NCBI RefSeq assembly: GCF_014280195.1 | Contig: NZ_CP047960.1 | Coordinates: 2,190,001 to 2,222,000, forward strand | Origin: Synechococcus sp. A15-24 | Lineage (GTDB): Bacteria > Cyanobacteriota > Cyanobacteriia > PCC-6307 > Cyanobiaceae | DNA length: 32,000 nucleotides | Direction: 5' to 3' | Shown: one piece after another, positions 7,021 through 29,834 of the stretch | Position numbering within the stretch: the stretch's first letter is position 1 | Layout: every line of letters starts with the position of its first letter | The notes under the pieces: model-generated | Seen by the model: only the letters and a program-made list of their open reading frames with translations | Database searches by the model: none | Told to the model about the DNA's origin: nothing | Made by a program: the position numbers and the translations under genes

Positions 7021-9290
<2,270 letters not shown>

Positions 9291-9449
9291 ACCATTACGC
9301 AACACCAAAACCACTCATACTCATGCAACTCTCAGGATCCATTCAGAGAGATTCATGAGAACACCCATCTTTGAAGACGCTATCATTCAAACGAACACTT
9401 TCCACAACTTTTCCAAAAAGGACCTTCAACGTAGTATTTCCGGCGACTA

Positions 9450-12400
9450 ATGCCAAAAAAATATGGCTATGACAAGGCGGACGACCAAGGCAATAGAGCC
9501 ACTAAAAGCATCAAAAAGTCCAATAGAAGTAGCATTAAAAATAAAAGTTTATCCAGACCAATTGTCGACAGAGATGGCAATGGCTTAGTCGACAGCTCCG
9601 AGAAGACTGGATACCAGCTCTACATCCCCGAAAGCGAGATTTTTATTACCACCGCATCTGGTAAAATATTTTCCGATGTAACATCTAAAAAGTGGTCAGC
9701 CATTGCGGCAGCCCCAGCAGAGAAAGGACATCAAGTTTTAATAGCGAACAATCAATCCAAAAAAGCCAAATACCAAATTTGGAGATTGAGAAGCAAGGGA
9801 ATCGTCCATTTAAAAGGTCGGCGGCTCACAGAAAGAGCCCTTAGCTCACAAGGCTACGAGCAAGTTTTCGATATTGATTTTAATGGTGACGGCATCATTG
9901 AAGCTGACACACTGATCGACGCAGGAGACGCAGATTTCTCTCTGACGGGAACTGCAATGGTTGGGAAACGATTACGGGCGATGCGAGCTGCCGATGATCC
10001 AGATGGAAATGGACGACTCCTCATCACCTGGCAGTCATCATCAGGAGCAAGCATCTGGACAACAACCGACACCGGCAAATCGATAAGTATCCCAGCAACA
10101 CTGGAGGGCGCTCAGGTCCGTGCCAGGGTTGAGTACAAAGATGGCGATAGGTTTCAAGAAACTGTCTTTACCCAGTCGCGCTTCATTCCATACATCGATC
10201 ACGGCGATGCTGCCTTCCTAATTCAAGGCACTCCAGCAGTCGGTCAAACCCTCTCTATCTCACAATCCGTCGCTGATCCCGATGGGGATGGGACACCCTC
10301 CTTCTCCTGGCTCCAATCCCGCGACGGCATCAACTGGTCTTTCCTTAGCTCCAACCCCACCTTCGCCATTTCTGACAACCTGGAAGGGCAGAACATCAGG
10401 GCGGACGTCCGATACACCGATGGCCAGGGCTTTGAGGAATCCATCTCCACGAATGCTGTCTCCATTCCCTACGTCGATAGCGGCGACGCTGCCTTCCTGA
10501 TTCAAGGCACTCCAGCAGTCGGTCAAACCCTCTCTATCTCACAATCCGTCGCTGATCCCGATGGGGATGGGACACCCTCCTTCTCCTGGCTCCAATCCCG
10601 CGACGGCATCAACTGGTCTTTCCTTAGCTCCAACCCCACCTTCGCCATTCCCGACAACCTGGAAGGGCAGAACATCAGGGCAGACGTCCAATACACCGAT
10701 GGCCAAGGCTTTGAGGAATCCATCTCCACAAATGCTGTCTCCATTCCCTACGTCGATAGCGGAGATGCTGCCTTCCTAATTCAAGGCACTCCAGCAGTCG
10801 GTCAAACCCTCTCTATCCATCGCTCCATCGACGATCCAGATGGCAACGGTGATGACACGCTTGAGATCACCTGGCAAGCCTCCCTCGATGGAGTCAATTG
10901 GTCTCTCGCCAGCACCAACCCCTCCTTAATCATTCCCAAAACCCTCGAGGGGCATCGAATCGATGCAACTGTCGCCTACACCGATACTCAGGGATTCAGC
11001 GAATCCATCAGCACCGACGATCTCACCATTCCTTTCATCGACGACGGTGATGCAGCCTTCACAATCCAAGGCACGCCAGACGTCGGCCAAACACTCTCCA
11101 TCCATCGCTCCACCGACGACCCAGATGGTAATGGTGATGACTCGCTGGAGATCACCTGGCAAGCCTCTCTCGATGGCATCACTTGGTGGGAAGTCGGAAC
11201 TACCCCCTTATTCCAGATCGGACCTGAGCTCGCCGGACATCAACTCAATGCCTTCGTACGGTACGTTGATGGGCAAGGTTTCAAAGAAAGAATTAGATCC
11301 GTCAACGTCTCCATTTCAGGCGCCATTGAATCAAACCTCAGTAGAGTCGACGACTTCGATAGCAACATAAATACAAGTGGCAAGCTCAATGTCAACAGCA
11401 GTATTGACGGTGAACTTGAATCTGCTGGCGACCGCGACTGGTTTGCCATCGACCTGACAGCAGGCCGTAGATACCAAGTCGACCTGGATGGCGTCAGTCT
11501 TCACGATCCCTTCCTCTATCTCCGCAACGGGTCATCAGACCTGATTAATTTTAATGATGACAAGTCCTTATTCAGCCTTAATTCACAGATAATTTTTGAC
11601 GTAGATAGCAGTGATACGTATTACCTTGACGCAGGCTCTTACGACGACGCTTATGCGGGTCGCTATACCCTCAAAGCCTCTGAGCTCAGTGCAGTAAAAC
11701 CTAGTTTCAGCAGCACGGATGGTTACGGCCATGTGAGCGCCAGACGCGCCTTCGAAGAACTTTTGGATATTTCACTTGACCCAGTCGCCTCCATTGGCGG
11801 CGCACTCTGGGGAGTCGACAATGTTGATGCGCCAGAAGTTTGGAACGGTGGCAGCATTTTTCCAGGTACAACAGGTGGTGGAACTACTGTTGCGGTGATC
11901 GACACAGGTGTGGATCTGGATCACCCAGAATTTGCAGGTCGCATTGTTGCTGGATACGACTTCGTCGACAACGATTCAATCGCTGATGATGGCGAAGGCC
12001 ATGGCACCCATGTTGCTGGCATTATCGCTGGTGCTAATGACGGTCAGGGAATAACCGGGGTCGCCCATGACACCTCGATCATGCCCCTTCGAGTTTTGGA
12101 TAATGATGGCAATGGCTGGGTCAGTGACATCATTTCCGCAGTGCGGTGGGCTGCCGACAACGGAGCTGATGTGATCAATTTATCTCTGGGTGGAGATGGC
12201 TCCAGCCAGGCCATGGCCGATGCCATTCGTTACGCATCACAGCGCGGGAGCGTTGTCGTAATGGCCTCTGGCAACACCGGTAGCAATTCCCCCGACTATC
12301 CCGCCGCCCATGCCATCAATCACGGCATTGCTGTTGGTGCTGCAAACAGCTATCAATTCCTAGCCGGGTTCTCCAACCGCGCCGGGAGCACACCGTTGGA

Positions 12401-12950
12401 TTACGTCACAGCACCGGGCGTCAATATCTATTCAGCTGTTCCTGGAGGCGGTTACGACACGTTCAACGGGACATCGATGGCGGCTCCGCATGTGGCCGGA
12501 GTTGCAGCCCTACTTAAAAGTTATAACCAGGGCTTATCAGCATCAACTATCGAAGATCTGCTCACAAACTCTGGTAGCAATTCACAAGGTAGAGCTACAG
12601 CATCAAATCAATCACCTCCGACAGGATTGACAATAAGTGATGTGATCACCCGGCAGACACTTGATACTTTCAGTGACAAACAACTCAATGGCACTTTGAT
12701 CGCCAGCATTGACGGAAACCGGCAAGAATGCCGCTCAACTATCCGCTTGCTCAAGCGAGGGATTCGATCCAACGATGTCACTTACAAAGGCCTGGAAGAT
12801 GTGCGTGTGATCGAAGCCAGTCGCAACAGCTTTGCCACGCTGAAGATCTCCAATGAGCGTTCGGTAGACCAGCGGGAGTTACTGAGTGAACTTCTGGCCA
12901 CCAACCACTTCAATTACTTTGAAGTCGACCAACAATTTTCAATCGTCTGA
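9450..12950 (+). CDS. 1166-aa multidomain subtilisin-like (S8) serine peptidase: basic N-terminus, 5 tandem ~93-aa repeats, PPC-like module, S8 catalytic domain, propeptide(I9)-like C-terminus
   Basis: Single uninterrupted ORF in lower-GC DNA. S8 triad contexts are 'VAVIDTGVDLDHPEF' (D, 11901-11903), 'GEGHGTHVAGIIAG' (H, 12000-12002) and 'NGTSMAAPHVAGVAALL' (S, 12474-12476). The PPC-like stretch is 'GDRDWFAIDLTAGRRYQVDL...TYYLDAGSY...GRYTLKA'. No hydrophobic N-terminal signal peptide is visible. Confidence 0.85.
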   Translation: MPKKYGYDKADDQGNRATKSIKKSNRSSIKNKSLSRPIVDRDGNGLVDSSEKTGYQLYIPESEIFITTASGKIFSDVTSKKWSAIAAAPAEKGHQVLIANNQSKKAKYQIWRLRSKGIVHLKGRRLTERALSSQGYEQVFDIDFNGDGIIEADTLIDAGDADFSLTGTAMVGKRLRAMRAADDPDGNGRLLITWQSSSGASIWTTTDTGKSISIPATLEGAQVRARVEYKDGDRFQETVFTQSRFIPYIDHGDAAFLIQGTPAVGQTLSISQSVADPDGDGTPSFSWLQSRDGINWSFLSSNPTFAISDNLEGQNIRADVRYTDGQGFEESISTNAVSIPYVDSGDAAFLIQGTPAVGQTLSISQSVADPDGDGTPSFSWLQSRDGINWSFLSSNPTFAIPDNLEGQNIRADVQYTDGQGFEESISTNAVSIPYVDSGDAAFLIQGTPAVGQTLSIHRSIDDPDGNGDDTLEITWQASLDGVNWSLASTNPSLIIPKTLEGHRIDATVAYTDTQGFSESISTDDLTIPFIDDGDAAFTIQGTPDVGQTLSIHRSTDDPDGNGDDSLEITWQASLDGITWWEVGTTPLFQIGPELAGHQLNAFVRYVDGQGFKERIRSVNVSISGAIESNLSRVDDFDSNINTSGKLNVNSSIDGELESAGDRDWFAIDLTAGRRYQVDLDGVSLHDPFLYLRNGSSDLINFNDDKSLFSLNSQIIFDVDSSDTYYLDAGSYDDAYAGRYTLKASELSAVKPSFSSTDGYGHVSARRAFEELLDISLDPVASIGGALWGVDNVDAPEVWNGGSIFPGTTGGGTTVAVIDTGVDLDHPEFAGRIVAGYDFVDNDSIADDGEGHGTHVAGIIAGANDGQGITGVAHDTSIMPLRVLDNDGNGWVSDIISAVRWAADNGADVINLSLGGDGSSQAMADAIRYASQRGSVVVMASGNTGSNSPDYPAAHAINHGIAVGAANSYQFLAGFSNRAGSTPLDYVTAPGVNIYSAVPGGGYDTFNGTSMAAPHVAGVAALLKSYNQGLSASTIEDLLTNSGSNSQGRATASNQSPPTGLTISDVITRQTLDTFSDKQLNGTLIASIDGNRQECRSTIRLLKRGIRSNDVTYKGLEDVRVIEASRNSFATLKISNERSVDQRELLSELLATNHFNYFEVDQQFSIV
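9921..11327 (+). repeat. in-frame tandem coding repeat array, 5 units (279, 279, 279, 285, 285 bp)
   Basis: Unit starts at 9921, 10200, 10479, 10758 and 11043. Units 2 and 3 (10200-10478 and 10479-10757) differ at only a handful of positions. Unit 4 shares the first ~60 bp with them. The periodicity also appears as duplicated shadow ORFs in the track (10244-10465 and 10523-10744). Confidence 0.95.
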
Positions 12951-12953
12951 TCC

Positions 12954-13811
12954 ATGACTTCTGTAGCCGTTGTAGGGACAGGGCTCCTGGGTACTGCCAT
13001 CACCAAGCGACTATTAGAGAAGGGCTTTGAGGTTCATGTTTGGAATCGCAACCCCGCGCGTTTGGCAGATCTGCAAGAGCTTGGGGCGCACGCCATCCAA
13101 GAGCTGCACGGAGCTGCCCAAGGACGCCAAGCCGTCATCACCGTGTTGCGCGACGGAGCAGTTACAGCAAACGTGATCCATGCACTTGGGCCAATCCATG
13201 GCTCCACCGTGATGCCGATGGGAACCATGGGCATCACGGAAATCCGCAGCTTGGCTGAACAGGTTCAGCATCAGAACGGACACTGTTTGGAAGCGCCTGT
13301 GCTGGGCAGCAAACCTCAGGCCTTGAAAGGAGAACTGTTGGTGATGGCCGGTGGTGAGCCGGCGCTGTTTGACCAGCAGAGACCGCTCCTGGAGCATCTC
13401 TCACAAGAGCCAATGCTGGTGGGACCGATCGGCAGCGGTGCTGCCACCAAGCTTGCGCTCAATCAACTGATCGCCAGCCTTACCCACGCCTTTTCTCTGT
13501 CGCTGCGACTGGTGCAGCAGGCAGGCGTGCACGTTGAGACGTTCATGGCCATCCTGAGGCCCTCGGCGCTCTATGCCCCCACCTTCGATAAGAAGCTGCA
13601 GCGGATGCTGGAGGGTCACTATGACGACCCGAACTTCAGCACAGCCCTGCTGCGCAAGGACCTGCACCTGTTCCTGGAGGAGGCGACCGCTGCTGGACTC
13701 CAAATCCAAGGGCTGCAGGGTCTGGACGCCCTGCTGGAACAGTCATCCGGTAGCCAACTGGATGACCTCGACTATTGCGCCCTGCATGAGCTGACGCAAG
13801 AAAGTTTTTAA
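12954..13811 (+). CDS. NAD(P)-dependent oxidoreductase, 3-hydroxyisobutyrate/6-phosphogluconate dehydrogenase-like family
   Basis: 285-aa ORF. N-terminal Rossmann motif '[29 protein letters not shown]', then 'GTMG...LEAPVLGS...G.L.VMAGG' typical of the HIBADH-related family. It starts 3 nt after the stop of the giant ORF. Confidence 0.7.
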
Positions 13812-19250: not shown

Positions 19251-20528
19251 ATGGATTTTCAGCAGAGCCTGATCACCACGGTTCATGACTACAGCCTGGG
19301 CAACCTGGATGCTGTTGCCTTCAACCGCGAGCTGAGCCAGCGGCCGACGACGCTGCTGATCCCCTGTCTGATGGAGGAGTTCAGCCGTCCAGCACTGGCG
19401 CTGATCCGCGACACTCTGTCGTCATTGAAAGGCCTCAATCGCCTCGTCATTGCTCTGGCCGCTGAAAGCGCGGAGGACGTAGCCCATGCCGAAGCCTTCT
19501 TCGCCGGCATGCCCTTTCCCGTTCAGGTGCACTGGACCAATGGCCCAGCCGTGAAGGACTTGCTTGAGTCCATGGGCGCCCTGGGACTCGAGGTCACCGG
19601 TCCCCCCGGCAAGGGCTGGGCGGTCTGGCAAGGGCTTGGGGTGGCCTGTCAGGACGCCGAAGTGGTGGGCCTGTTTGACGCCGACATCCGCACCTTCGGC
19701 TCGGCATACCCGGAGCGGATGTTGCGTCCACTGCTGGATCGCTCCCACGGCATCGCCTACGTCAAGGCCTTCTACAGCCGGCTATCGCTGGAAACCCAGG
19801 CGCTGCAGGGTCGGGCCACCCGCCTGTTCGTCGGTCCTCTGCTGGTCAGCCTCGAACAGATCTTTGGCCCACTGCCGTACCTGCGCTATCTGCAGTCTTT
19901 TCGCTACCCCTTGGCTGGTGAATTCGCCTTCACCACCGATCTGGCGATGAATCTGCGCATCCCCTCCGATTGGGGCCTGGAGATGGGGTTGCTCTCGGAG
20001 GTATTCCGTCATGTCGCCACCAGTCGCATTGCCCAGGTGGATCTGGGGCTGTTTGATCACAAGCACAAAGGACTCGGAAGCAAACCCAGTGAGGGGTTGC
20101 AACGCATGGCCGGTGAAATCTTCGGAACCGTTTTGCGCAGCTTGATGGAGCACGAGGGCGCCGTGATCTCGATGGATCAGATTCCCACCCTTGAGGTGCT
20201 CTACCGACGCGTCGGTGAGGATCGGGTGCGCCAATTCGGCATTGATTCGGCGATCAACCGGCTCCCCTATAACCGCCATGGAGAAGAACTGGCTGTGCAC
20301 AGTTTTGCTGAACTGCTGCGGCCAGGACTCTCCCGCCTAATGGAGTCTCCAGTTGCTCATCAGCTCCCCAGTTGGTCACGACTGAAAAGCTGCAATCCTT
20401 CACTTCAAGGCGACCTAAGTGCAGCAGGTCAAATGGATCGCACTACATCTCGAACATTGCCCCAGTCTCAACCATTGCGTCGACCCAATCACAAACCCAG
20501 ATCATCAACATCTGAGCTTGTTGCCTGA
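19251..20528 (+). CDS. gpgS: glucosyl-3-phosphoglycerate synthase (retaining glycosyltransferase)
   Basis: 'FQQSLITTVHDY' N-terminus, 'LLIPCLMEE', the DxD-type 'GLFDADIR', and 'YPLAGEFAFT...DWGLEMGLL' typical of glucosyl/mannosyl-3-phosphoglycerate synthases. The start could instead be the ATG at 19209. The track start at 19089 overlaps the divergent gene. Confidence 0.7.
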   Translation: MDFQQSLITTVHDYSLGNLDAVAFNRELSQRPTTLLIPCLMEEFSRPALALIRDTLSSLKGLNRLVIALAAESAEDVAHAEAFFAGMPFPVQVHWTNGPAVKDLLESMGALGLEVTGPPGKGWAVWQGLGVACQDAEVVGLFDADIRTFGSAYPERMLRPLLDRSHGIAYVKAFYSRLSLETQALQGRATRLFVGPLLVSLEQIFGPLPYLRYLQSFRYPLAGEFAFTTDLAMNLRIPSDWGLEMGLLSEVFRHVATSRIAQVDLGLFDHKHKGLGSKPSEGLQRMAGEIFGTVLRSLMEHEGAVISMDQIPTLEVLYRRVGEDRVRQFGIDSAINRLPYNRHGEELAVHSFAELLRPGLSRLMESPVAHQLPSWSRLKSCNPSLQGDLSAAGQMDRTTSRTLPQSQPLRRPNHKPRSSTSELVA

Positions 20529-20556
20529 ACGGACTTGAATCAAATGTAAACGAGTC

Positions 20557-20600
20557 AAATTGGCCCCAATCGTCAGATTGGAGCCAATTTCTATTCGTTT
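20557..20600 (+). terminator. putative intrinsic terminator between convergent gpgS and the small minus-strand ORF
   Basis: AAATTGGCcCC (20557-20567) pairs with GGaGCCAATTT (20580-20590), giving 8+2 bp with one mismatch and a 12-nt loop. It is followed by TTTCTATTCGTTT. The same DNA also reads as two ATTGG-N2-CCAAT palindromes 18 bp apart. Confidence 0.4.
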
Positions 20601-20619
20601 AGACAAATCCCAAGACGCA

Positions 20620-20799
20620 TCAAAGAGCCTGCTGCTGCCGCATTACCCATTGCGTAGCAGCGCGCTGGGATTGCCAGGCATGGAGAAGTTGCTTGGCAAG
20701 CGTCTGCAACTGCGCTGGGTCAGCAGTGGCTTCAATGGCACGGTTCATCCGCTCCACTTCAAAGCATTGCGTCGTGGACATTGCAATCGATTCCCTCAT
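20620..20799 (-). CDS. 59-aa two-helix protein, NblA-like (phycobilisome degradation protein-like) by pattern
   Basis: The ATG at 20799 is preceded by GGAG with a 6-nt spacer (TTGGAGTAAGTGATG). 'FEVERMNRAIEATADPAQLQTLAKQLLHAWQSQRAATQWVMRQ' follows the size and heptad-like pattern of NblA (F..x..F/M...Q/I....(E/A)Q.Q.L...L...). Confidence 0.45.
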   Translation of the reverse strand: MRESIAMSTTQCFEVERMNRAIEATADPAQLQTLAKQLLHAWQSQRAATQWVMRQQQAL

Positions 20800-21065
20800 C
20801 ACTTACTCCAATTGAAGACTTCACTATTTTCATGCCACCACGAAAAAGAATTGTTTCATTTGAAACGAAACATCCACACTGTGTGAACTTTCAGACTTAC
20901 GTACTGATCAACCCACACTCCGCAACCAAAAAGAGCCGCGCCATCATCAAAAAGTCGCTAAAGCTACCAAACCAACTGCATCTGTATCACGGGGTCTAAA
21001 CGAAATCTGAAAGCATTTCCAATTCGTGCCCAATCCAACACTCCACTGGCGCAGAGTTCTGCAAA

Positions 21066-21338
21066 GTGGCATCATTCTGGGATTCAGACATGATTGAGTG
21101 CGTCTACCGCAACGACACTGACCGAATGGTGATTGTTAAATGTGTCGGGGATGACCGCTTTTACCGTGAAAAGGTTGTGCTTCCCACTGAGATGTTCTGG
21201 TTTGAAGCCCCTGAACAGGCGCGGCTTGAAATCTGGAAAATGTCGGTGAGCGGTCAGATGCTGCACGTACGCGCCGATGTGAGCGAGTACGCCATGAATC
21301 AAGACGAGGCGGCCACCGAAACAGTCTGGGCCTGCTAA
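21066..21338 (+). CDS. DUF1830-like conserved cyanobacterial small protein
   Basis: 'IECVYRNDTDRMVIVKCVGDDRFYREKVVLPTEMFWFEAPEQARLEIW' resembles the DUF1830 signature (C.Y.N......I......YFERVV.P......FEAP..A.LEI). The track start at 21066 is GTG. An alternative ATG lies at 21090. Confidence 0.6.
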   Translation: MASFWDSDMIECVYRNDTDRMVIVKCVGDDRFYREKVVLPTEMFWFEAPEQARLEIWKMSVSGQMLHVRADVSEYAMNQDEAATETVWAC

Positions 21339-21368
21339 ACCGCTCCAGCCCCAGGACCTCAAGGAGGG

Positions 21369-21635
21369 CTAGCGGCCAATCAGATCGACTCCGAGCAGCT
21401 CAGCAGTCATCCTTGAGCGCAGAAAGCCCCCGGGACGGAGGGTCTTCGCCTTTGCCGCAGATGCTCCAGCCTCAAATGCATGCCGTTGATCATCTTGCAC
21501 ATCGTCGGAGAGGCTAAGAAGCTCAGCAGTTTTCTTGGAACGGATGATCTGGCAACTTGCCGTCTTCCGCCCGGAAGGCCGGTAGAGCAGTTGAGACGTT
21601 TGAATAATCGAGCGTTGAGATTGAAGTTTGGACAT
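21369..21635 (-). CDS. hypothetical 88-aa protein with an internal duplicated motif
   Basis: The ATG at 21635 is preceded by GGAGAGGA. The motif (I/F)(I/L)RS(K/R)xTAELL(S/G)(L/V) occurs twice ('IIRSKKTAELLSL' and 'FLRSRMTAELLGV'). The longer track versions (to 21776) add an implausible N-terminus. Confidence 0.35.
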   Translation of the reverse strand: MSKLQSQRSIIQTSQLLYRPSGRKTASCQIIRSKKTAELLSLSDDVQDDQRHAFEAGASAAKAKTLRPGGFLRSRMTAELLGVDLIGR

Positions 21636-21863
21636 TCGTCCTCTCCGAGATGAACAGGTCCCCGTTCCTTGACCTGAGAACCACTGCGCCCTGAACCAGG
21701 GTGAACGGCTGGTATTGGTTGATACAGATAAATCATGACAAGCCAATGGATACAGATGTCGTTCGTGTCGAAACAAAATGGCAAACGGTTAATATTCTTC
21801 ACAAAGGTCTGCCCCAGCAAAGTAGAAGGTGCCCATGTACGGCATGTCCCTGCCCGAAAGCAA

Positions 21864-22343
21864 TTGAAGAATTTCTTACCAATTGGAGCGATAGCCTGCC
21901 TACTCTCCGTGACAACGACAGCAATTCAAGGGTGCTACCAGCAAGCCAAGGAAACTCCCAGTCATGAAGCTCAACCCGGCGACACGCTTGTGGTGAAGGG
22001 AGGTGCAGAGATACGCCTGACCCACACCTTCAAACCAGGAGAACCCAATGGACTCTTCGATGGAGGAATCAGGGTCACAACGGATCAATCCGTGACGAGC
22101 ACTGCAGAGGTGAATGCGGTCTGCAGCATGCCTGATCTGCCGAACTGGCCTCAGTACGACAACATTTATGGACGTTGGTTAACGGACGGCGAAACGCCTG
22201 GTGTCGAGGGAGGAAAAACGGACTGGCAACTGTTGCTCTATTTCAATGGCCAGACCGAGGAGAAGGGCCGCGAACCAGCTCCTGCATGGGCCCAACGCCT
22301 CGCGCAAAACCTTTGTCGAAAAGGAGATTTCCTAGACGACTGA
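21864..22343 (+). CDS. putative lipoprotein (159 aa if TTG start)
   Basis: Within the 21735-22343 ORF, 'KNFLPIGAIACLLSVTTTAIQGC' is a signal peptide ending in a lipobox-like IQGC. The in-frame TTG at 21864 would place it at the N-terminus. The ATG at 21735 would leave 43 aa in front of it. Confidence 0.45.
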   Translation: MKNFLPIGAIACLLSVTTTAIQGCYQQAKETPSHEAQPGDTLVVKGGAEIRLTHTFKPGEPNGLFDGGIRVTTDQSVTSTAEVNAVCSMPDLPNWPQYDNIYGRWLTDGETPGVEGGKTDWQLLLYFNGQTEEKGREPAPAWAQRLAQNLCRKGDFLDD

Positions 22344-22471
22344 GCTACCTAGGGAGGCCAAGCATCTCCGTAATGGCCAACGGTCGCCCAACAAAATGAC
22401 ACAACAGTGGCAATTGATACGGCCAGGCTCTCCTCGAGACCTGACTATGGGAATGGTTCTCATTCTCGCCA

Positions 22472-22774
22472 ATGGCTAGTACCGGCAGTGTCAGTTCCTG
22501 GGACGAGTCTGTGCTCGTCGCAATGATTCAATATCCCGTGCCTGTGATCACAGGTCCAGCCGATATCCATACACAAGTCGACCAGATTTGCAAAGCCGTA
22601 GCGTCAACAAAAGCTGGATATCCGGAAGCAGACATAATTGTGATGCCTGAGTACTCAACTCAAGGTTTAAACACAGCCATTTGGACCTATGCCACAGAAC
22701 AGAGTGACAAATTCGATCCCAGCAACAGCAACAGCCTGACAAAGTTTGCTGCCGCAAGTTTGCTCTCTGCATGA
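22472..22774 (+). pseudogene. truncated remnant of a nitrilase-superfamily aliphatic amidase/formamidase (AmiE/AmiF type)
   Basis: The first ~70 codons, 'VLVAMIQYPVPVI...DQICKAVASTKAGYPEADIIVMPEYSTQGLNTAIW', match the N-terminus of AmiF/AmiE-type enzymes as I recall them (...AAIQFPVP...ATKAGYPG..LI.FPEYSTQGLNTAKW), including the catalytic Glu. Full-length enzymes are ~335-345 aa. The frame here degenerates after ~22685 and stops at 22774 inside a palindrome. The Lys and Cys of the triad are missing. Confidence 0.6.
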
Positions 22775-22786
22775 GAGCAAACTTGC
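22754..22786. repeat. perfect 14-bp inverted repeat with 5-nt loop
   Basis: GCAAGTTTGCTCTC-tgcat-GAGAGCAAACTTGC. The 9-mer AAGTTTGCT also occurs directly upstream (22742-22750). The pseudogene stop codon lies in the loop/stem. Confidence 0.9.
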
Positions 22787-22883
22787 GACGAATTAAGATT
22801 TTTTTATCATACTGTAGGATTAAAAAAAGTATCACATAAAACAAAGTTTTAGTATCAAAACAGTGCAATTTTTAATTGCGTAT

Positions 22884-22906
22884 AAAGGGCCACATCTTGG
22901 CCCTTT
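22884..22906 (+). terminator. GC-rich hairpin in the fmdA upstream region (terminator-like or 5'-leader structure)
   Basis: AAAGGGCCA-catct-TGGCCCTTT (9-bp stem) followed by CGTTGTGTCTTT, ~40 nt upstream of the fmdA ATG. The T-tract is interrupted, so terminator function is uncertain. Confidence 0.35.
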
Positions 22907-22947
22907 CGTTGTGTCTTTAATAAAACAGTGTTAGCTTCTTGCTATCA

Positions 22948-24153
22948 ATGCCCGAAACGCTTTTCAAAGTTGATCTCACCAAGTCGATGGATCAGCAGGA
23001 TATGCCTGGACATAACCGTTGGCATCCAGATATTCCTGCAGTCGCATCAGTTAATCCAGGCGATGTCTTTCGAATTGAGTGCAAAGACTGGACAGATGGA
23101 CAGATTAAAGACAACGACAATCCCCAAGATATTGCTGATGTGAATCTCGAGGTTGTTCACGTTCTAAGTGGTCCAATTTGGGTCAATGGAGCTCAGCCAG
23201 GAGATATTTTGGTTGTTGATATCCTCGAGGTAGGAGCACTTCAAGGTGATGAGTGGGGTTTTACTGGAATCTTTGCCAAAGAAAACGGTGGAGGATTTCT
23301 GACCGATCATTTTCCAAAAGCAGCAAAAGCAATCTGGGATTTGGAAGGAGTTTTTACGTCCTCTCGCCACATTCCCGGAGTTCGTTTCGCTGGCATCACC
23401 CATCCAGGCCTGATCGGTTGCGCTCCCTCCATAGATCTGCTCCAGGAATGGAACCGTCGAGAAACAGAGTTGGTTCAGACTGCACCAGACCGCAGAACCT
23501 ATGGCGCAGGACTTTCTGGAACGGAACCGGTTCTGGCAGCTTTGCCGAACCCAAACAGCGCCATTCTTGGGAACGTCGCTGCTGGAGATTTTGAGAGAAT
23601 TGCTAACGAAGCAGCTCGGACTGTTCCTCCACGGGAACATGGAGGAAACTGCGACATTAAAAATCTCACAAAAGGAACACGGATCTATTTCCCTGTGTAC
23701 GTAGAGGGTGCAAAGCTCTCCATGGGTGACATTCACTTTTCTCAGGGTGATGGGGAAATTTCATTCTGTGGTGCTATCGAGATGTCTGGATATCTCGATC
23801 TTCATGTTGAGCTGATCAAAGGAGGGATGGCTAAATATGGCATGGTCAATCCAATGTTCAAGACCAGTCCTGTTGAGCCTCATTACTCTGATTATCTAGT
23901 CTTTGAGGGCATCTCTGTCGATGAATTTGAAGGGAAACAATATTATATGGATGTGCATATCGCTTATCGCAGAGCCTGCCTAAATGCAATTGAATACTTG
24001 AAAAAATTTGGTTATACAGGAGAACAGGCCTATCTCTTGCTGAGCTGCGCTCCGGTTGAAGGCAGGATCAGTGGAATTGTCGACATTCCAAATGCGTGCT
24101 GCACCCTTGCCATACCAACTTCCATATTTGACAAAGATATTCTCCCCTGCTAA
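22948..24153 (+). CDS. fmdA: formamidase (acetamidase/formamidase family, FmdA type)
   Basis: 401-aa ORF from the ATG at 22948. 'HNRWHPDIP', 'PGD.F..EC.DWTDGQI.D', 'H.LSGPI.V.GA.PGD.L.V.I', 'REHGGNCDIKNL..G..IYFPV' and 'GDIHFSQGDGE' are hallmark FmdA/AmdA motifs. The size matches ~400-410-aa formamidases. Confidence 0.85.
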   Translation: MPETLFKVDLTKSMDQQDMPGHNRWHPDIPAVASVNPGDVFRIECKDWTDGQIKDNDNPQDIADVNLEVVHVLSGPIWVNGAQPGDILVVDILEVGALQGDEWGFTGIFAKENGGGFLTDHFPKAAKAIWDLEGVFTSSRHIPGVRFAGITHPGLIGCAPSIDLLQEWNRRETELVQTAPDRRTYGAGLSGTEPVLAALPNPNSAILGNVAAGDFERIANEAARTVPPREHGGNCDIKNLTKGTRIYFPVYVEGAKLSMGDIHFSQGDGEISFCGAIEMSGYLDLHVELIKGGMAKYGMVNPMFKTSPVEPHYSDYLVFEGISVDEFEGKQYYMDVHIAYRRACLNAIEYLKKFGYTGEQAYLLLSCAPVEGRISGIVDIPNACCTLAIPTSIFDKDILPC

Positions 24154-24187
24154 GCACTTACTTCTACCATTATTTATCGATTTTCAC

Positions 24188-24472
24188 ATGCCAGTCTACG
24201 AATATTCCTGCCAATCTAGTGAATGCCTCACCTATGAAGTATGGCGATCAATTGATCAACGTTCTGTTCAAACAGAATGCCCTACTTGTGGAAGAGAAGG
24301 CAAGAGGATTTTCAATCCACCCATGGTGTTATCCTCATCTATTCGCTCGAAAATCGAAGTTAAGGAACCAAAACTTGTGAGCAAAAAAAATTCAATATAT
24401 GCGACTGAGGCTTCAAAGCCTCGATTACGCACAAACGATTCACGTCCTTGGATGTTGAATCGAGGTTGCTAA
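24188..24472 (+). CDS. fmdB: FmdB-family zinc-ribbon putative regulatory protein
   Basis: 'MPVYEYSC....C...EVW.S........CP.CG......F' matches the N-terminal FmdB/CxxC_CxxC_SSSS zinc-ribbon pattern. The tail is Ser/Lys-rich and ends in GC. I chose the ATG at 24188 because the track start at 24056 lies inside fmdA. Confidence 0.7.
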   Translation: MPVYEYSCQSSECLTYEVWRSIDQRSVQTECPTCGREGKRIFNPPMVLSSSIRSKIEVKEPKLVSKKNSIYATEASKPRLRTNDSRPWMLNRGC

Positions 24473-24495
24473 GAAAAGACTATCAAAATCAAAAC

Positions 24496-24535
24496 AAATG
24501 GGGTGTGATTAAAAATCACACCCCATTTTTATTCT
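24496..24535. terminator. bidirectional intrinsic terminator between convergent fmdB and urtE
   Basis: AAATGGGGTGTGATT-aaa-AATCACACCCCATTT (about a 15-bp stem) is followed by TTTTATT on the plus strand and by TTTGTTTTGATTTTG on the minus strand. Confidence 0.8.
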
Positions 24536-24537
24536 GA

Positions 24538-25284
24538 TTAAACTGTCAGGAATTCTTCAATCACATGATCTGATAATTGTGAGGTTGGACCACTCGATAC
24601 AATACCACCTCGTTGCATCGCATAATAGAAATTAGACTGCTTCACAAAATGAAGGTGTTGCTCAACCAGAAGAACACTAATGCCTGTTTCTTTAATGATC
24701 CGTTTGACAGCACGTTCAATGTCGAGAATAATCGATGGCTGGATCCCTTCGGTTGGCTCATCTAACAAAAGAAGCTTGGGCTTGCCAAGAAGTGCACGTG
24801 CAATCGCAAGTTGTTGCTGCTGACCTCCACTGAGGTCACCTCCACGTCGATTCAGAAACTGTTCAAGAATAGGAAACAATTCAAAAACAATGGGATCAAT
24901 ATGACGATTTCGCCCCATCCCCCCAGACAATGATTCCATTCCGATCAAAAGATTCTCTCGAACTGTAATTCGAGGAATAATATCTCGGCCTTGGGAAACA
25001 TAACCAATTCCTCCCCTTGCTCGTTTATAAGGAGGCTGGTTAGTTAACATTTTTCCGTCATATTCAATCGAACCAGATCGTTGCTCGAGAAGACCAATGA
25101 TCGTCTTTAGAAAGGTTGTCTTTCCCACTCCATTACGACCGATCAAACAAATCATTTCCCCCTCAGGGATATGCAGATCAACATTTCTGAGAATGTGACT
25201 CTCGCCATAATAGACATTCAAGCCATTTGCTCGAAGAACTGTTTTTGCTGAGGTTGGATGTGTGGTGGTTGTCGTTTGTACCAT
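24538..25284 (-). CDS. urtE: urea (short-chain amide) ABC transporter ATP-binding protein UrtE
   Basis: Walker A 'GRNGVGKTT', ABC signature 'LSGGQQQQL', Walker B 'LLLLDEP'. Branched-chain/urea (LivF-like) type, last gene of the urtABCDE order. Confidence 0.85.
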   Translation of the reverse strand: MVQTTTTTHPTSAKTVLRANGLNVYYGESHILRNVDLHIPEGEMICLIGRNGVGKTTFLKTIIGLLEQRSGSIEYDGKMLTNQPPYKRARGGIGYVSQGRDIIPRITVRENLLIGMESLSGGMGRNRHIDPIVFELFPILEQFLNRRGGDLSGGQQQQLAIARALLGKPKLLLLDEPTEGIQPSIILDIERAVKRIIKETGISVLLVEQHLHFVKQSNFYYAMQRGGIVSSGPTSQLSDHVIEEFLTV

Positions 25285-25316
25285 GATCTTTAAAGGGATT
25301 AGTGAATAAAAAGATA

Positions 25317-26060
25317 CTATTCAGATTGACCGAGATAAACCTCAATCACTTTTGGATCAGACTTTACCTCATCAAGTGAACCTTCCGTCAACAACTGCCC
25401 TTGATGCAACACAGTGACTGGTGCGGCAAGATCACGAATAAACTCCATATCATGCTCAATTACCACCACGGTATGTTCACCTGCAAGGGATTTAATCAGT
25501 TCAGCTGTTTTGTTCGTCTCGTCATCGGTCAAGCCTGCCACTGGCTCGTCCAGAAGAATGATATCTGGAGATTGAGCAACAAGCATTGAAATCGCAAGCC
25601 ATTGTTTTTGGCCGTGAGACAAAGAACCGGCCAAGACCTTTGCATAAGGAGCAAGGCCCACATAATCCATCAAGCGATAGACCTCATCTTTAGCCGTGTT
25701 ATTGAGTTTTTCAAACATAAGACTGAATGGCATCTTGCTCGGTGAAGCAGCCAACTCAAGATTTCTAGAGACCGAAAGATTTTCAAACACGCGAGGTGTC
25801 TGAAACTTACGACCAACACCTAGTCTTGAAATCTTCTGTTCCGAAAAACCAATAATGCTGGAACCTCGCAGGGAGACTGAGCCTTTGGTTGGCTTAACCT
25901 TTCCAGTGATGACATCTAGAAAAGTTGTTTTACCAGCGCCATTGGGTCCAATGATTGATCTTAACTCACCATGCTCTAGTGAGATGGAAAGATCAGTCAA
26001 TGCGAAGAAACCATCAAAATCAACGCTGACATCGTTCAATTCAAGAATTGGTGTTGACAT
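25317..26060 (-). CDS. urtD: urea ABC transporter ATP-binding protein UrtD
   Basis: Walker A 'GPNGAGKTT', signature 'LSHGQKQWL', Walker B 'IILLDEPVAG'. LivG-like, fourth gene of the operon. Confidence 0.85.
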   Translation of the reverse strand: MSTPILELNDVSVDFDGFFALTDLSISLEHGELRSIIGPNGAGKTTFLDVITGKVKPTKGSVSLRGSSIIGFSEQKISRLGVGRKFQTPRVFENLSVSRNLELAASPSKMPFSLMFEKLNNTAKDEVYRLMDYVGLAPYAKVLAGSLSHGQKQWLAISMLVAQSPDIILLDEPVAGLTDDETNKTAELIKSLAGEHTVVVIEHDMEFIRDLAAPVTVLHQGQLLTEGSLDEVKSDPKVIEVYLGQSE

Positions 26061-26110
26061 TGCTTAAACAGTGTTGGTTGACATGAAGAAGAAGGTTGTT
26101 TAAAAGCAAA

Positions 26111-27232
26111 CTATTGTGATTCAACTGTGTAACTTTTATCTATTTCTAATTTTGGATAAGTCGAAGATTTTTTGGCAATTCCAAAGGCTGCCAACATCGA
26201 AGTAAATCCACCATTCTTGAACCATCCATAAATACCATCCGGCATCAACACAACCACGAAGATAAACAGACCACCCTGCACAAACAACCAGGCTTCTGGT
26301 AGTGCTTCACTGACAAGGCTTCGTAAGTAGTTCACCAAAACGGCGCCTATAATCGGTCCGATCAATGTTCCACGACCACCAACGGCGACCCAAATCACCA
26401 TTTCAATAGACATTGAAATGGCCATGTACTGAGGTGAAACGATACCTGACTGAACTGTATAAAGTGCACCTGAAATGCCAGCCAAGCCACCAGCAACTAA
26501 AAAGACGATCACTTTAAAAGGAACCGGATTAAACCCACTGAAACGGAGTCGTGCTTCATCATCTCTGATCCCGATCAAAGCATCACCAAAACGACCACTC
26601 GTTAAAAACTTACATAAGAGATAGGCAAAAGGGAGAATTATAAGTGTAATCCGATAGAACATAATCTGAGCATCATCGGAGCCCACGATCATTCCGAAGA
26701 TCTCCGTTGTGCTCGTCTTAAGGCCATTCGTTCCATTAACAAGCTTCTGCTGACCATTGAAAAAATGGTAAAAAACCATCAAAGAAGCCTGAGTAATAAT
26801 AGAAAAATAAACACCCTTGATTCTGTTTCTAAAAATCAAATATCCGACAAGGCCAGCAACCACAGCAGGAATTAACCATATAGCAATCAATGTCCAAGGG
26901 AATGACCAGAATGGTTGCCAGAAAAACGGAAGGTTATCAACACCATAATTCTCAAAGAACTTAGGCAGACCATTAGCACCAGTGGTGAAATCATTGTTAG
27001 TCACCAAGAGAAGATGCATGGCTATGGCATAACCACCCAAGGCAAAGAAGATACCTTGACCAAGACTTAGGAGTCCGGTATATCCCCAGATCAGGTCGAT
27101 ACCTAAAGCAATGATAGCTAAAGAAAAATACCTACCGAAAAGGTTAAGGCGGAACTGTGAAAGAATCGCTGGTAGGACAAAGAATGCGAAGGCGAGAAGA
27201 AGCCAGGGAATCAGCTTTTTGAAAATTTTCAT
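26111..27232 (-). CDS. urtC: urea ABC transporter permease UrtC
   Basis: 373-aa polytopic membrane protein of the LivM-like family ('LSLGQGIFFALGGY', 'GGRGTLIGPIIGA'). Confidence 0.8.
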   Translation of the reverse strand: MKIFKKLIPWLLLAFAFFVLPAILSQFRLNLFGRYFSLAIIALGIDLIWGYTGLLSLGQGIFFALGGYAIAMHLLLVTNNDFTTGANGLPKFFENYGVDNLPFFWQPFWSFPWTLIAIWLIPAVVAGLVGYLIFRNRIKGVYFSIITQASLMVFYHFFNGQQKLVNGTNGLKTSTTEIFGMIVGSDDAQIMFYRITLIILPFAYLLCKFLTSGRFGDALIGIRDDEARLRFSGFNPVPFKVIVFLVAGGLAGISGALYTVQSGIVSPQYMAISMSIEMVIWVAVGGRGTLIGPIIGAVLVNYLRSLVSEALPEAWLFVQGGLFIFVVVLMPDGIYGWFKNGGFTSMLAAFGIAKKSSTYPKLEIDKSYTVESQ

Positions 27233-27249
27233 GGTAAAAACAGTAGTAA

Positions 27250-28407
27250 TCAGGATTCGACAGATCGTCCCTTTTGAGGGAACATCCCAGTAGGTTTAAA
27301 TTGAAGGAACGTAATAATAAAGATAAATATCAGCACATATGACATACTTGTTGTGGCAAAGAACTCAATCACAGCAGCAGGACCAGCCGGTATATTGTCG
27401 AAAGCAATTAAGATGGCACCAGATCCAATGATGGATTGAATGATGCCAAGCATCATCGAAGCAATCACAGTACCAACAAGATTTCCAACTCCCCCTAGAA
27501 CAATAACCATAAAGCAAGAAACGATATAGGCCGCTCCAAGATTGGGTCCTACAGAGCCAAGCAGAGTGATCGCACTACCAGCAACACCAGCTAAGCCTGA
27601 TCCAATCCCGAAGGTGATGCTGTCGACACTATCAGTGGGAATACCCAAGCAATTGCTCATCTGGCGATTTTGAGTGACAGCACGGATACGTAAACCCCAA
27701 ACACTCTTTGTGAGGAACCATGCCACAAACGCAAGCAGCAGAGCCGAAAGGATAATGATAAAAATTCGAATACCTGGCAACTCAATCCCCGCAATGGAAC
27801 CCCAGCTTCCTTGCAACCATTTCGGAGCTGTCACGTCAATATTGCGAGGTCCAAACCAAGCTTTAGAGAGCATCTTAGAAGCTGTCATCGCATTAATTGA
27901 AATAAATCCAATCGCTGATGCCACAACCCAAGCAAAACCTGATAAATAAGGGTAGAAATTAGCACTTTTAAGCTTTGCTGGTGAAAATCGTTGAGAGAAA
28001 TAACCTAGCAATATCGCAATTAATATACCTAAAACCATACTTGTTGAAACACTGCGTATAAATTGAATCAGCACAAGGCTGACACCCCAAGTAGCAAGCA
28101 ATGTCTCAAGCGGTCGGCCATATAATTGCCGTATTAATGTTCTTTCCAGAAGAATGCCGACAATTCCAGTAATGACAAAGGCAAAAAATAATGCGAAAAA
28201 ATAATAGAGTTGGAAAACACCTTCGCCAAGAGGCTTGAACATGTTTTGAGTGACAAAAGTCACGTAAGCTCCAACCATCATCAACTCGCCATGAGCGAGA
28301 TTGATTACCCCCATCAAACCAAAAACGATGGCAAGGCCAGTAGCCGCAAGAAGCAAAACTGACCCAATGCTGAGCCCATCAAGGAGCTGTGAAAAAATTA
28401 ATTCCAT
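27250..28407 (-). CDS. urtB: urea ABC transporter permease UrtB
   Basis: LivH-like polytopic permease ('GVINLAHGELMMVGAY', 'LGGVGNLVGT'). I chose the ATG at 28407 (MELIFSQLLDGLS...). The track start at 28437 is a TTG inside the urtA terminator hairpin. Confidence 0.8.
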   Translation of the reverse strand: MELIFSQLLDGLSIGSVLLLAATGLAIVFGLMGVINLAHGELMMVGAYVTFVTQNMFKPLGEGVFQLYYFFALFFAFVITGIVGILLERTLIRQLYGRPLETLLATWGVSLVLIQFIRSVSTSMVLGILIAILLGYFSQRFSPAKLKSANFYPYLSGFAWVVASAIGFISINAMTASKMLSKAWFGPRNIDVTAPKWLQGSWGSIAGIELPGIRIFIIILSALLLAFVAWFLTKSVWGLRIRAVTQNRQMSNCLGIPTDSVDSITFGIGSGLAGVAGSAITLLGSVGPNLGAAYIVSCFMVIVLGGVGNLVGTVIASMMLGIIQSIIGSGAILIAFDNIPAGPAAVIEFFATTSMSYVLIFIFIITFLQFKPTGMFPQKGRSVES

Positions 28408-28420
28408 CAGTACATGGGGT

Positions 28421-28451
28421 AAAAAAAAGGGCCACAAGTTTATTGTGGCCC
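28421..28451 (-). terminator. intrinsic terminator/attenuator between urtA and urtB
   Basis: On the minus strand, GGGCCACAA-taaac-TTGTGGCCC (9-bp GC-rich stem) is followed immediately by T8 (plus-strand A-run 28421-28428). It lies 29 nt after the urtA stop and 14 nt before the urtB ATG. Confidence 0.75.
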
Positions 28452-28479
28452 ACTATTCAAAGAAATTCAGAAGTAACGA

Positions 28480-29787
28480 TTACATCTTGAACTTTCCGGC
28501 ATCAGCACGATCAAGGGTCCAGTCGCACTTGTAGCCTTTGGTCTCAGGAACGTACTGGTTCCAAGTGATAGGAGGAACAGGGGTCTTGCTGTCCCAGAGA
28601 ATCTCAAACTGACCATCCTCCTTAGCCTCACCAATCCGCACAGTCTGTGAGATGTGGTGATTGGGATACATCTCAATCGGACCCTGAGGAGCATCGAGCT
28701 TAATTCCGATCAGTGCATCCCGGACAGCATCCAGATCTTCATAAGTGCCAGCCTTCTCAACAGCAGCCTTCCAGAGGTAAACCATGTTGTAAGCCGACTC
28801 CATCGGATCGTTCGTCACACGATCATCACCGTACTCAGCAAGGAATGCTGAATTGAAGGTATCGGAGGCCGAGGTTCCGAGGGACATGAAATAGTTCCAG
28901 GCCGCATAAGTGCCGCCCACATACTCAGGTCCGATCTGACGGATCTCCTCCTCAGCGATGGAGAAGGACATGATCGGATACTTTTCCGGAGTAATTCCTG
29001 CTGCCTTGAACTGCTTGAACAGGGCAACGTTGGAATCACCGTTCAGAGTGTTGATGATGATTCCACCATCAGGGAACTCCTTCTTGATCTTGGCGATGAT
29101 AGGTGCCACCTCAGTGTTGCCCAGAGGGATGTAGTCCTCACCGACTGTCTCACCACCCAGGCTCTTGACCTGCTCTTTGATGATGGTGTTAGCAGTTCTG
29201 GGGTAGACGTAGTCAGAACCAACCAAATAAACCTTCTTGCCGTACTTGTCGGCGAACTGCTCAAACAGCCAGTCAACAGCGGGCTCAGCCTGCTGGTTAG
29301 GGACAGCGCCGGTGTAGAAGATGTTCTTGGAGCACTCCTGACCTTCGTACTGAATTGGGTAGAAGAGGAAGTGATCCTTGGCTTCGTAAACCGGAAGCAT
29401 TGCCTTCCGACTTGCGGATGTCCAGCCGCCAAACACAACGGCAACCTTATCGGCGTCGATCAGCTTCTGTGACTTCTCCGCGAAGGTAGGCCAATCTGAA
29501 GCACCATCTTCAGAGGTGTAGGTGATCTTGTAGCTCTTGCCATCGATTTTGACGCCACCGTCGGCATTGATTTCCTTGATCGCCATCTCCTCGACTTCTT
29601 TTAGAGTCGTTTCGGAGATCGCCATCGTTCCGCTAAGGGAATGAAGGATGCCAACTTTGATTTCACCATCAAAATCTGCACCACCACCAGCGGAATCACC
29701 ACTGTCTCCGCCACAGGCGGTCATTGTGACTCCCACTGTTGTGGCAGCGAAAGCAGCTAGCAGACGCTTCGTAAACGTTGAATTCAT
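28480..29787 (-). CDS. urtA: urea/short-chain amide ABC transporter substrate-binding lipoprotein UrtA
   Basis: 'KVGILHSLSGTMAISE..L.....MA..EINA.GGV', 'VFGGWTSASRKA' and 'YP.QYEGQE' are typical of UrtA/FmdD-type binding proteins. The signal peptide has 'VTMTAC' followed by a Gly/Ser/Asp linker. The ATG at 29787 is preferred over the track GTG at 29799. Confidence 0.88.
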   Translation of the reverse strand: MNSTFTKRLLAAFAATTVGVTMTACGGDSGDSAGGGADFDGEIKVGILHSLSGTMAISETTLKEVEEMAIKEINADGGVKIDGKSYKITYTSEDGASDWPTFAEKSQKLIDADKVAVVFGGWTSASRKAMLPVYEAKDHFLFYPIQYEGQECSKNIFYTGAVPNQQAEPAVDWLFEQFADKYGKKVYLVGSDYVYPRTANTIIKEQVKSLGGETVGEDYIPLGNTEVAPIIAKIKKEFPDGGIIINTLNGDSNVALFKQFKAAGITPEKYPIMSFSIAEEEIRQIGPEYVGGTYAAWNYFMSLGTSASDTFNSAFLAEYGDDRVTNDPMESAYNMVYLWKAAVEKAGTYEDLDAVRDALIGIKLDAPQGPIEMYPNHHISQTVRIGEAKEDGQFEILWDSKTPVPPITWNQYVPETKGYKCDWTLDRADAGKFKM

Positions 29788-29834
29788 GAAGAAAGACACA
29801 CGGTGGATGAGACCGCCATGAGGGCGACAATAGA

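Follow-up and report, generated by a model that had tools for sequence, protein, structure and literature searches.

The locus analyzed here raises the question of why a cyanobacterium holds the wreck of one formamidase gene directly beside an intact gene for another, unrelated one. The stretch in question (hereafter the window) comprises 32,000 nucleotides of the Synechococcus sp. A15-24 genome (contig NZ_CP047960.1, positions 2,190,001 to 2,222,000 of the forward strand), and coordinates given without further qualification refer to it. It contains a truncated copy of amiF, the gene of a nitrilase-superfamily formamidase, followed on the same strand by the formamidase gene fmdA and by fmdB, with the genes of a urea-type (Urt) ATP-binding cassette (ABC) transporter beyond them. 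AmiF is a metal-free cysteine hydrolase and FmdA has a different, possibly metal-dependent fold. Taken as a whole, the evidence is best explained, and we hold this with high confidence, if the open reading frame (ORF) at 22472-22774 is a non-functional amiF relic left by a 779-bp deletion, with FmdA remaining, at a slot where the two enzymes displace each other in both directions. A15-24 itself is a clade III marine strain (PMC7522525).

The amiF remnant and the anatomy of its deletion

The 100-codon ORF at 22472-22774 (forward strand) is a mechanical reading frame consisting of 73 AmiF residues and a 27-residue frameshifted tail, the TGA stop of which lies inside a hairpin. The AmiF portion (22472-22690, forward strand) corresponds to codons 1-73 and includes the catalytic glutamate motif PEYSTQG. 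Searches with the NCBIfam model NF009803 ('formamidase') established its similarity to the family, with a match to model positions 1-74 of 333 (E 4.9e-26). The score of 91.3 bits (cut-off 406) falls short of the threshold for a whole AmiF protein, and full-length coverage is likewise lacking. The same residues 1-73 match the AmiF structures 5G3O (E 1.8e-19) and 2DYU (E 5.7e-17). The Pfam CN_hydrolase profile scored 15.1 bits, below its gathering score of 23.2, as the ORF covers just 57 of its 256 positions. Of the catalytic Cys-Glu-Lys triad, the glutamate (PEYSTQGLNTA) is kept, and the regions carrying the lysine (HYRKLQPW) and the cysteine (AVCICHD) are absent. These matches and motifs bear out the initial annotation, prepared from the letters of the DNA and its ORF translations, which had described the first 70 or so residues of a nitrilase-superfamily formamidase with its glutamate present and its lysine and cysteine missing. 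Judged from its sequence, a copy without codons 74-333 cannot be an enzyme.

Comparison with intact alleles revealed how the gene was broken. The closest of these lies on the metagenome contig L096, which encodes an UrtE identical to that of the window, and a full amiF is also found in Cyanobium sp. NAT70 (L001, 8749-9795, 348 amino acids) in the same slot between fmdA and the upstream flanking gene, here labeled hyp202. The intact genes of NAT70, L096 and L098/L099 score 531-603 bits on NF009803, above the cut-off of 406, and contain all three catalytic motifs; the window copy shares 93-97% amino acid identity with intact alleles. Alignment of the window to L096 demonstrated a single 779-bp deletion between two copies of the 9-nt direct repeat GGACCTATG. 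The window matches L096 at 99% up to 22689 and at 97% from 22679 onward, with the two matching segments overlapping by 11 nt and offset by 779 bp. In the intact allele the first repeat is contained in ATTTGGACCTA(C/T)GAC at codons 70-74 and the second in ATTAGGACCTATGCC, 779 bp downstream of the first. A single surviving copy marks the junction in the window (22683-22691, forward strand). Immediately behind it (22692-22739, forward strand) lie the last 15 amiF codons and the stop, reading PQNRVTNSIPATATA and corresponding to the L096 C-terminus PQNGVTNSIPATATA, out of frame with the 5' remnant. The initial annotation had stated that no remainder was visible in any downstream frame, which these 15 codons correct. 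As 779 bp is not a multiple of three, the 3' codons are read in another frame, which explains why the ORF closes with 27 nonsense residues.

Comparison with each of three independent intact alleles (L096, L098/L099 and NAT70) gives the same two break points, and the flanks are the same in all of them. This positional orthology, together with the matching break points, identifies the window copy as a pseudogene derived from a member of the AmiF family. That the fragment is a dead AmiF, as first proposed, is thus sustained by intact orthologs at exactly its position. A tblastn search of the 32-kb window with a full AmiF query returned nothing beyond the 5' remnant and the retained 3' end. The deletion is confined to amiF coding sequence and leaves the upstream region of fmdA unaffected. 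Just past the original amiF stop lies a perfect 14-bp inverted repeat (22754-22786, forward strand; GCAAGTTTGCTCTC-TGCAT-GAGAGCAAACTTGC), read from the sequence and recovered as a self-inverted BLAST match. The same 14-bp-stem hairpin occurs 3' of the intact amiF in L096, and the repeat is probably the amiF 3' hairpin. An interpretation of 22692-22812 as unrelated filler, or as a small inserted element with a hairpin, arose from spurious matches in a MAFFT alignment with NAT70 and was discarded when the L096 comparison resolved the segment into the amiF 3' end and the hairpin.

The loss of amiF codons 74-333, including the lysine and the cysteine, was accordingly the work of one event between the two GGACCTATG copies, which also put the last 15 codons out of frame. 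It was probably caused by slipped-strand or other illegitimate recombination; gene loss through deletion between short repeats is ordinary. Strain A15-28 (L088; complete genome CP047931.1) shows the same junction, as do nine independent metagenome contigs (L081, L089-L095 and L097), and because of this recurrence the deletion is no assembly artifact. A 44-residue ORF called in A15-28 was considered as a further-degraded variant, but DNA alignment showed the same 100-residue ORF and a difference of gene-calling choice only. The deletion is present in nine of the ten contigs that encode the identical UrtE; the tenth, L096, is intact. Both the intact L096 and the deleted L081 come from a single sample, ERZ27267471.

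Two-way displacement at the formamidase slot

Scans of species-representative genomes with FmdA and of metagenomes with AmiF, along with targeted look-ups, placed the A15-24 arrangement in a series of states of the slot between hyp202 and urtE; the states other than that of the Cyanobium-type genomes come from contigs with the marine flanking genes. Metagenome contigs may carry assembly errors, and each of the key states was seen in at least two independent contigs. Twelve Cyanobium-type genomes (L002-L013) hold fmdA and fmdB alone, in the order hyp202-fmdA-fmdB-urtEDCBA-ureG, with no amiF remnant found within 10 kb. About 20 loci (e.g. L098, L105-L112) carry amiF-fmdA-fmdB with all three genes intact, and in L133, L135, L137 and L143 amiF stands on the other side, as fmdA-fmdB-amiF. 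A dead amiF with fmdAB recurs in L102-L104 through a second, independent in-frame deletion that leaves a 62-residue ORF. The reverse condition is found in L113 and L114, where amiF is intact and the fmdA behind it is broken by many stop codons and frameshifts (identity 35-54%, as against more than 93% for live copies). Finally, amiF occurs alone beside urtE in L124, L130, L136, L140 and L144. The amiF-urtE spacer of L136, L140 and L144 matches the region downstream of amiF in the fmdA-fmdB-amiF type, which links the amiF-only state to that arrangement. The loss of AmiF is a repeated one: besides the deletions of the A15-24 type and of L102-L104, two further amiF relics, an in-frame 831-bp deletion in L083 and a frameshifted copy in L082, lie at an unrelated locus.

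Pfam assigns the two proteins to different families (CN_hydrolase and FmdA_AmdA) without any cross-hit, and both attain NCBIfam 'formamidase' equivalog thresholds, in the case of AmiF through its intact alleles. One slot is thus occupied alternatively by fmdAB only, by both genes in two orders, by a broken amiF with fmdAB, by amiF with a broken fmdA, and by amiF only. As far as gene content and family assignment can tell, this comparison shows the slot to be the site of an ongoing two-way displacement between two analogous formamidases across picocyanobacteria. The initial annotation had suggested a non-orthologous replacement in progress and had proposed comparing the locus across closed marine Synechococcus genomes. 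The comparison, with its several slot states and intact amiF at the same position, upholds displacement across lineages; the accompanying picture of FmdA as a newcomer replacing an incumbent AmiF in this strain is not supported. In the other lineages fmdA would have decayed or disappeared and AmiF would have stayed.

The roughly 20 marine loci that hold both genes intact side by side could also mean that AmiF and FmdA are not redundant, serving different substrates or conditions (metal-free versus metal-dependent catalysis, for example), and that the deletion is a local adaptation. Contigs L139 and L141, apparently non-cyanobacterial, in which amiF adjoins an fmdA homolog and an AmiE-like gene, fit such a division of labor, as does the coexistence of intact and deleted alleles in one sample. 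However, the loss of either gene while the other stays is a signature of interchangeable functions, and the shared attainment of the equivalog thresholds points the same way. We regard this account as unlikely.

The divergence of the two genes from NAT70 bears on when and in what order they came and went. Non-synonymous (pN) and synonymous (pS) divergence were 0.033 and 0.83 for the amiF remnant and 0.031 and 0.83 for fmdA. Such equal values indicate that amiF and fmdA were equally constrained for nearly all of their shared history and, for the same reason, that the deletion is recent. On balance we favor fmdAB as the older resident and amiF as a later, mobile addition lost again in A15-24, a reading drawn from gene order and similarity. 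The seniority of fmdAB is argued from the Cyanobium-type genomes, which hold it at the same place without amiF; the later addition of amiF is argued from its two different insertion points, before fmdA or after fmdB. Its identity of about 80% to the enzymes of Legionella, Photorhabdus and Corynebacterium gives the pattern of a horizontally mobile gene, and intact amiF at other loci, on contigs of 60-74% GC, was counted toward the same reading. In L100 the GlmU gene beside amiF clusters with Aphanothece and MULTISPECIES proteins. The ancestor of the A15-24 lineage carried both formamidase genes in a hyp202-amiF-fmdA-fmdB tandem, convergent with urtEDCBA; according to this scheme amiF would have been added there after fmdAB and then lost again in A15-24 and A15-28.

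The converse history, with AmiF as the first formamidase at the locus and an fmdA-fmdB pair gained by horizontal transfer now taking its place, is improbable in our estimation. It draws on the shared annotation of the two enzymes, on the fact that the dead gene is amiF, and on the foreign-looking composition of the amiF remnant, fmdAB and urtBCDE, with a GC content at third codon positions (GC3) of 34-47% against 67-80% in the flanks. Yet amiF has the atypical composition of this block and not that of the backbone, and it sits at two alternative positions in the slot. Furthermore, fmdA-fmdB lies between hyp202 and urtE in twelve Cyanobium-type genomes free of any amiF remnant, and the equal divergence of amiF and fmdA from NAT70 implies that the two were inherited together and were not gained one after the other in recent times.

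Polymorphism within the deleted haplotypes describes the fate of the remnant since the deletion. Over its 73 codons the segregating sites comprise 1 synonymous and 5 non-synonymous, as compared with 5 synonymous and 1 non-synonymous over the 402 codons of fmdA in 11 haplotypes, and segregating sites are about five times as dense in the remnant as in fmdA. The 5-nt hairpin loop (22768-22772) is inverted in L091 and L094, reading ATACA rather than TGTAT or TGCAT, a hairpin-loop flip that removes the stop codon of the ORF and extends it to 122 residues. The relic behaves as a drifting pseudogene under relaxed selection and not as a conserved small protein. That the 100-residue ORF is instead a functional small protein making new use of the AmiF N-terminus is highly implausible: the start codon and 17 conserved nucleotides ahead of it are kept and the ORF is 96-98% identical in two strains and several contigs, but the excess of non-synonymous sites and their density, the stop codon lost in L091 and L094, a tail made of frameshifted amiF 3' end and hairpin, the quite different remnants (62 and 60 residues) in other lineages and the loss of two of the three catalytic residues all speak against it. 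The relic is drifting neutrally at present, with fmdA and fmdB intact and under purifying selection.

Several points weigh against the reading of 22472-22774 as an amiF relic within a two-way displacement. The polymorphism counts are small (1:5 and 5:1). The AmiF search spans 32 kb of A15-24, and an intact amiF may lie elsewhere in the genome. The formamidase function of both proteins in A15-24 is a prediction from sequence. The late arrival of AmiF is a parsimony argument, and the pattern would be the same had the ancestor of Cyanobium cleanly lost amiF. The contigs L082 and L083 are not claimed as cyanobacterial. Lastly, the canonical box of the nitrogen regulator NtcA (GTAN8TAC-N22-TAN3T) is absent upstream of the window fmdA, at 22814-22855.

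The retained enzyme, its predicted control and its surroundings

The fmdA gene (22948-24153, forward strand) is intact, encodes 401 amino acids without internal stops and has a product identical to WP_186498331.1. PF03069 (FmdA_AmdA) matched it over profile positions 1-372 of 373 (E 2.9e-187; 622 bits, cut-off 27), and the equivalog model NF045496 scored 667 bits, above its curated threshold of 500 and with full coverage. The solved 'formamidase' structure 2WKN matches with an E value of 6e-166. The intact reading frame is accompanied by purifying selection, visible both in the polymorphism (5:1) and in the divergence from NAT70. The start of fmdB (24188-24472, forward strand) follows 34 nt past the fmdA stop. 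Its 94-residue product is assigned by family and position to the FmdB-type zinc-ribbon proteins (TIGR02605, 39 bits against 31.3; PF09723, 35.3 bits against 34.4), and the spacing of its first cysteine pair is Cx4C as read from the sequence. The end of AmiF homology (22690) and the fmdA start are separated by 257 nt, close to the 260 bp first estimated. A terminator-like hairpin (22884-22906, forward strand) lies within this spacer, 42 nt upstream of the fmdA start codon. Rfam searches of the spacer between the amiF remnant and fmdA gave nothing credible, a 22.7-bit match to SraG (gathering score 50) being noise.

On the far side, a bidirectional terminator hairpin (24496-24528) separates fmdB from the convergent urt genes, which occupy the reverse strand as urtE (24538-25284), urtD (25317-26060), urtC (26111-27232), urtB (27250-28437) and urtA (28480-29799). 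Their identification as a urea-type ABC transporter follows from the Pfam families Peripla_BP_5/6 and BPD_transp_2 and from conserved synteny, and the window UrtE is identical to the RefSeq 'MULTISPECIES' protein 'urea ABC transporter ATP-binding subunit UrtE'. FmdB, UreG and the product of the hypothetical gene upstream are likewise identical to RefSeq proteins, those of Synechococcus sp. A15-24. Past urtEDCBA come ureGFE, the accessory genes of urease. The profile searches proposed with the initial annotation agree with it: NF009803 matches the 22472 ORF in part, with CN_hydrolase below threshold, PF03069 matches the 22948 product, and the described layout, an intact 401-residue FmdA-family enzyme (PF03069, NF045496) followed 34 nt later by FmdB (TIGR02605), is what we found, here beside an Urt-type transporter. 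The upstream flank of the slot, hyp202 (21735-22343, forward strand), is a conserved hypothetical gene that stands directly upstream of fmdA or amiF in L001-L013 and the marine contigs. Neither Pfam nor NCBIfam returned a match for it; the conserved [IL]QGC at the end of its N-terminus is similar to a lipoprotein signal, and hyp202 may be functionally tied to the amide genes.

With amiF lost, A15-24 would rely on FmdA alone to convert formamide to formate and ammonium, with substrate uptake through the adjacent Urt-type transporter and expression under nitrogen control. The use of formamide as a nitrogen source by these cells is likewise a prediction. In Arthrospira, FmdA increases when nitrogen is depleted (PMC4509649), a response that the same paper also states for Synechocystis. 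Boxes of the form GTAN8TAC were detected upstream of cyanobacterial fmdA in 28 of 80 loci, as compared with 3.7% of background pieces. In NAT70 a canonical NtcA-type promoter, GTATCAACAATTAC-N22-TAGTTT, precedes fmdA (L001, about 9883-9924). The aligned site in the A15-24-type haplotypes retains GTA, the N22 spacing and the -10 box TAGTAT, with AAA in place of the right half-site. A canonical NtcA promoter was accordingly rejected for the window fmdA, which has a degenerate version only.

Several observations concern the composition and relationships of the block. The compositional island extends over about 20500-29500; the low GC3 (34-47%) covers the amiF remnant, fmdA, fmdB and urtB-E, and urtA stands at 60%, within flanks of 67-80%. 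The same dip is seen in A15-28 and L099 and, in milder form, in the Cyanobium loci. UrtA-E are 85-91% identical to those of NAT70 and 72-81% identical to those of the Cyanobium loci, and UreG is about 86% identical to all. An exchange of the fmd-urt block between lineages is suggested. Conservation across phyla is considerable for both enzymes in the protein set P0133, P0134 and P0137: the AmiF of Synechococcus shares 78-80% identity with those of Legionella, Photorhabdus and Corynebacterium, and FmdA is 72% identical to that of Brevibacillus and more than 80% identical to those of distant cyanobacteria.

Related clusters were encountered elsewhere. Filamentous cyanobacteria (L015, L018, L019, L023, L025 and L028-L030) have, no more than 10 kb from fmdA, an AmiE-like CN_hydrolase that shares 35-38% identity with AmiF; in L015 this gene is frameshifted. 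Contigs L139 and L141 (54-58% GC) bring together urt-like genes, an AmiE-like gene, amiF and an fmdA homolog. Amide-utilization clusters mixing these enzymes seem to be widespread. In L085-L087 (8001-8495) a 164-residue ORF joins AmiF residues 25-80 to the C-terminal half of an UrtE-like ATPase. The ORF falls in a cluster of 145 sequences, and the contigs, which carry Rnf-complex, cobalamin and ribosomal genes, are not obviously cyanobacterial. The fusion looks like another wreck of an amiF-urt cluster. L002 (CALRQM020000001.1), filed as a 'Bordetella parapertussis' metagenome-assembled genome, contains a Cyanobium-type hyp202-fmdAB-urt-ure locus of 60-77% GC, and its label is probably wrong.

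Further features of the window lie outside the slot. A glutamine-II riboswitch (21653-21710, reverse strand; RF01704, 49.9 bits against a gathering score of 33) is located 17 nt upstream of an 88-residue ORF (21369-21635, reverse strand) that ends in RPGGFLRSRMTAELLG, between a DUF1830 gene and hyp202. This ORF is without a Pfam match, and a similar one occurs in NAT70. A second stretch of lower GC (48-55%) at 9000-13500 includes a 1166-residue ORF (9450-12950) with Peptidase_S8 (subtilase), PPC and weak W_rich_C domains.

Relation to known systems and biological meaning

Each part of the locus is a described family (AmiF, FmdA, FmdB and Urt). With respect to AmiF of Helicobacter pylori and Bacillus cereus (PDB 2DYU/2E2K and 5G3O), residues 1-73 of the remnant, including the triad glutamate, align end to end, and the intact sister haplotypes reach the equivalog score with all three catalytic motifs; the Synechococcus enzymes differ by a C-terminal extension of about 12 residues. 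In Methylophilus methylotrophus, as summarized in PMC10781810 from Wyborn (1996) and Mills (1998), fmdA-fmdB occurs with fmdC and fmdDEF. The two systems share an FmdA gene followed by an FmdB gene and the linkage to a binding-protein-dependent transporter for urea or short-chain amides. They differ in that the window transporter is a five-gene urtABCDE set beside urease genes, convergent with fmdAB and in a separate operon, that no gene for the FmdC porin was seen here, and that regulation is probably by NtcA rather than by formamide induction. The order ureEFG-urtABCDE is that of the marine Synechococcus ure-urt cluster, to which one or two formamidase genes are added at the urtE end, with an atypical composition of these genes and of urtB-E.

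The locus has the hallmarks of non-orthologous gene displacement, with two unrelated folds annotated for one reaction and single, double and pseudogene states of one slot. Such displacement is usually inferred from presence and absence across distant genomes. Here, by contrast, intermediates with pseudogenes of both partners exist at one locus, one of them polymorphic within a sample. We found no description of side-by-side analogous formamidases with reciprocal decay in marine Synechococcus in open-access papers, nor any description of formamidase genes in marine picocyanobacteria (Synechococcus and Cyanobium) in the open-access literature, a search that did not extend to subscription journals.

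The locus offers an unusually complete natural series of enzyme replacement, from the ancestral state through the doubled one and those with either gene dead to the resolved ones, with one step polymorphic in a single seawater sample. We tentatively entertain the broader view that the slot is a still-segregating two-way replacement of which natural populations preserve every intermediate, that formamide or a similar amide taken up through Urt is a real and unrecognized nitrogen source, and that the enzyme kept may track the environment. Formamide would then be a possible nitrogen source for abundant ocean phototrophs and, if this is true, the formamidase that a lineage keeps may follow conditions such as metal supply.

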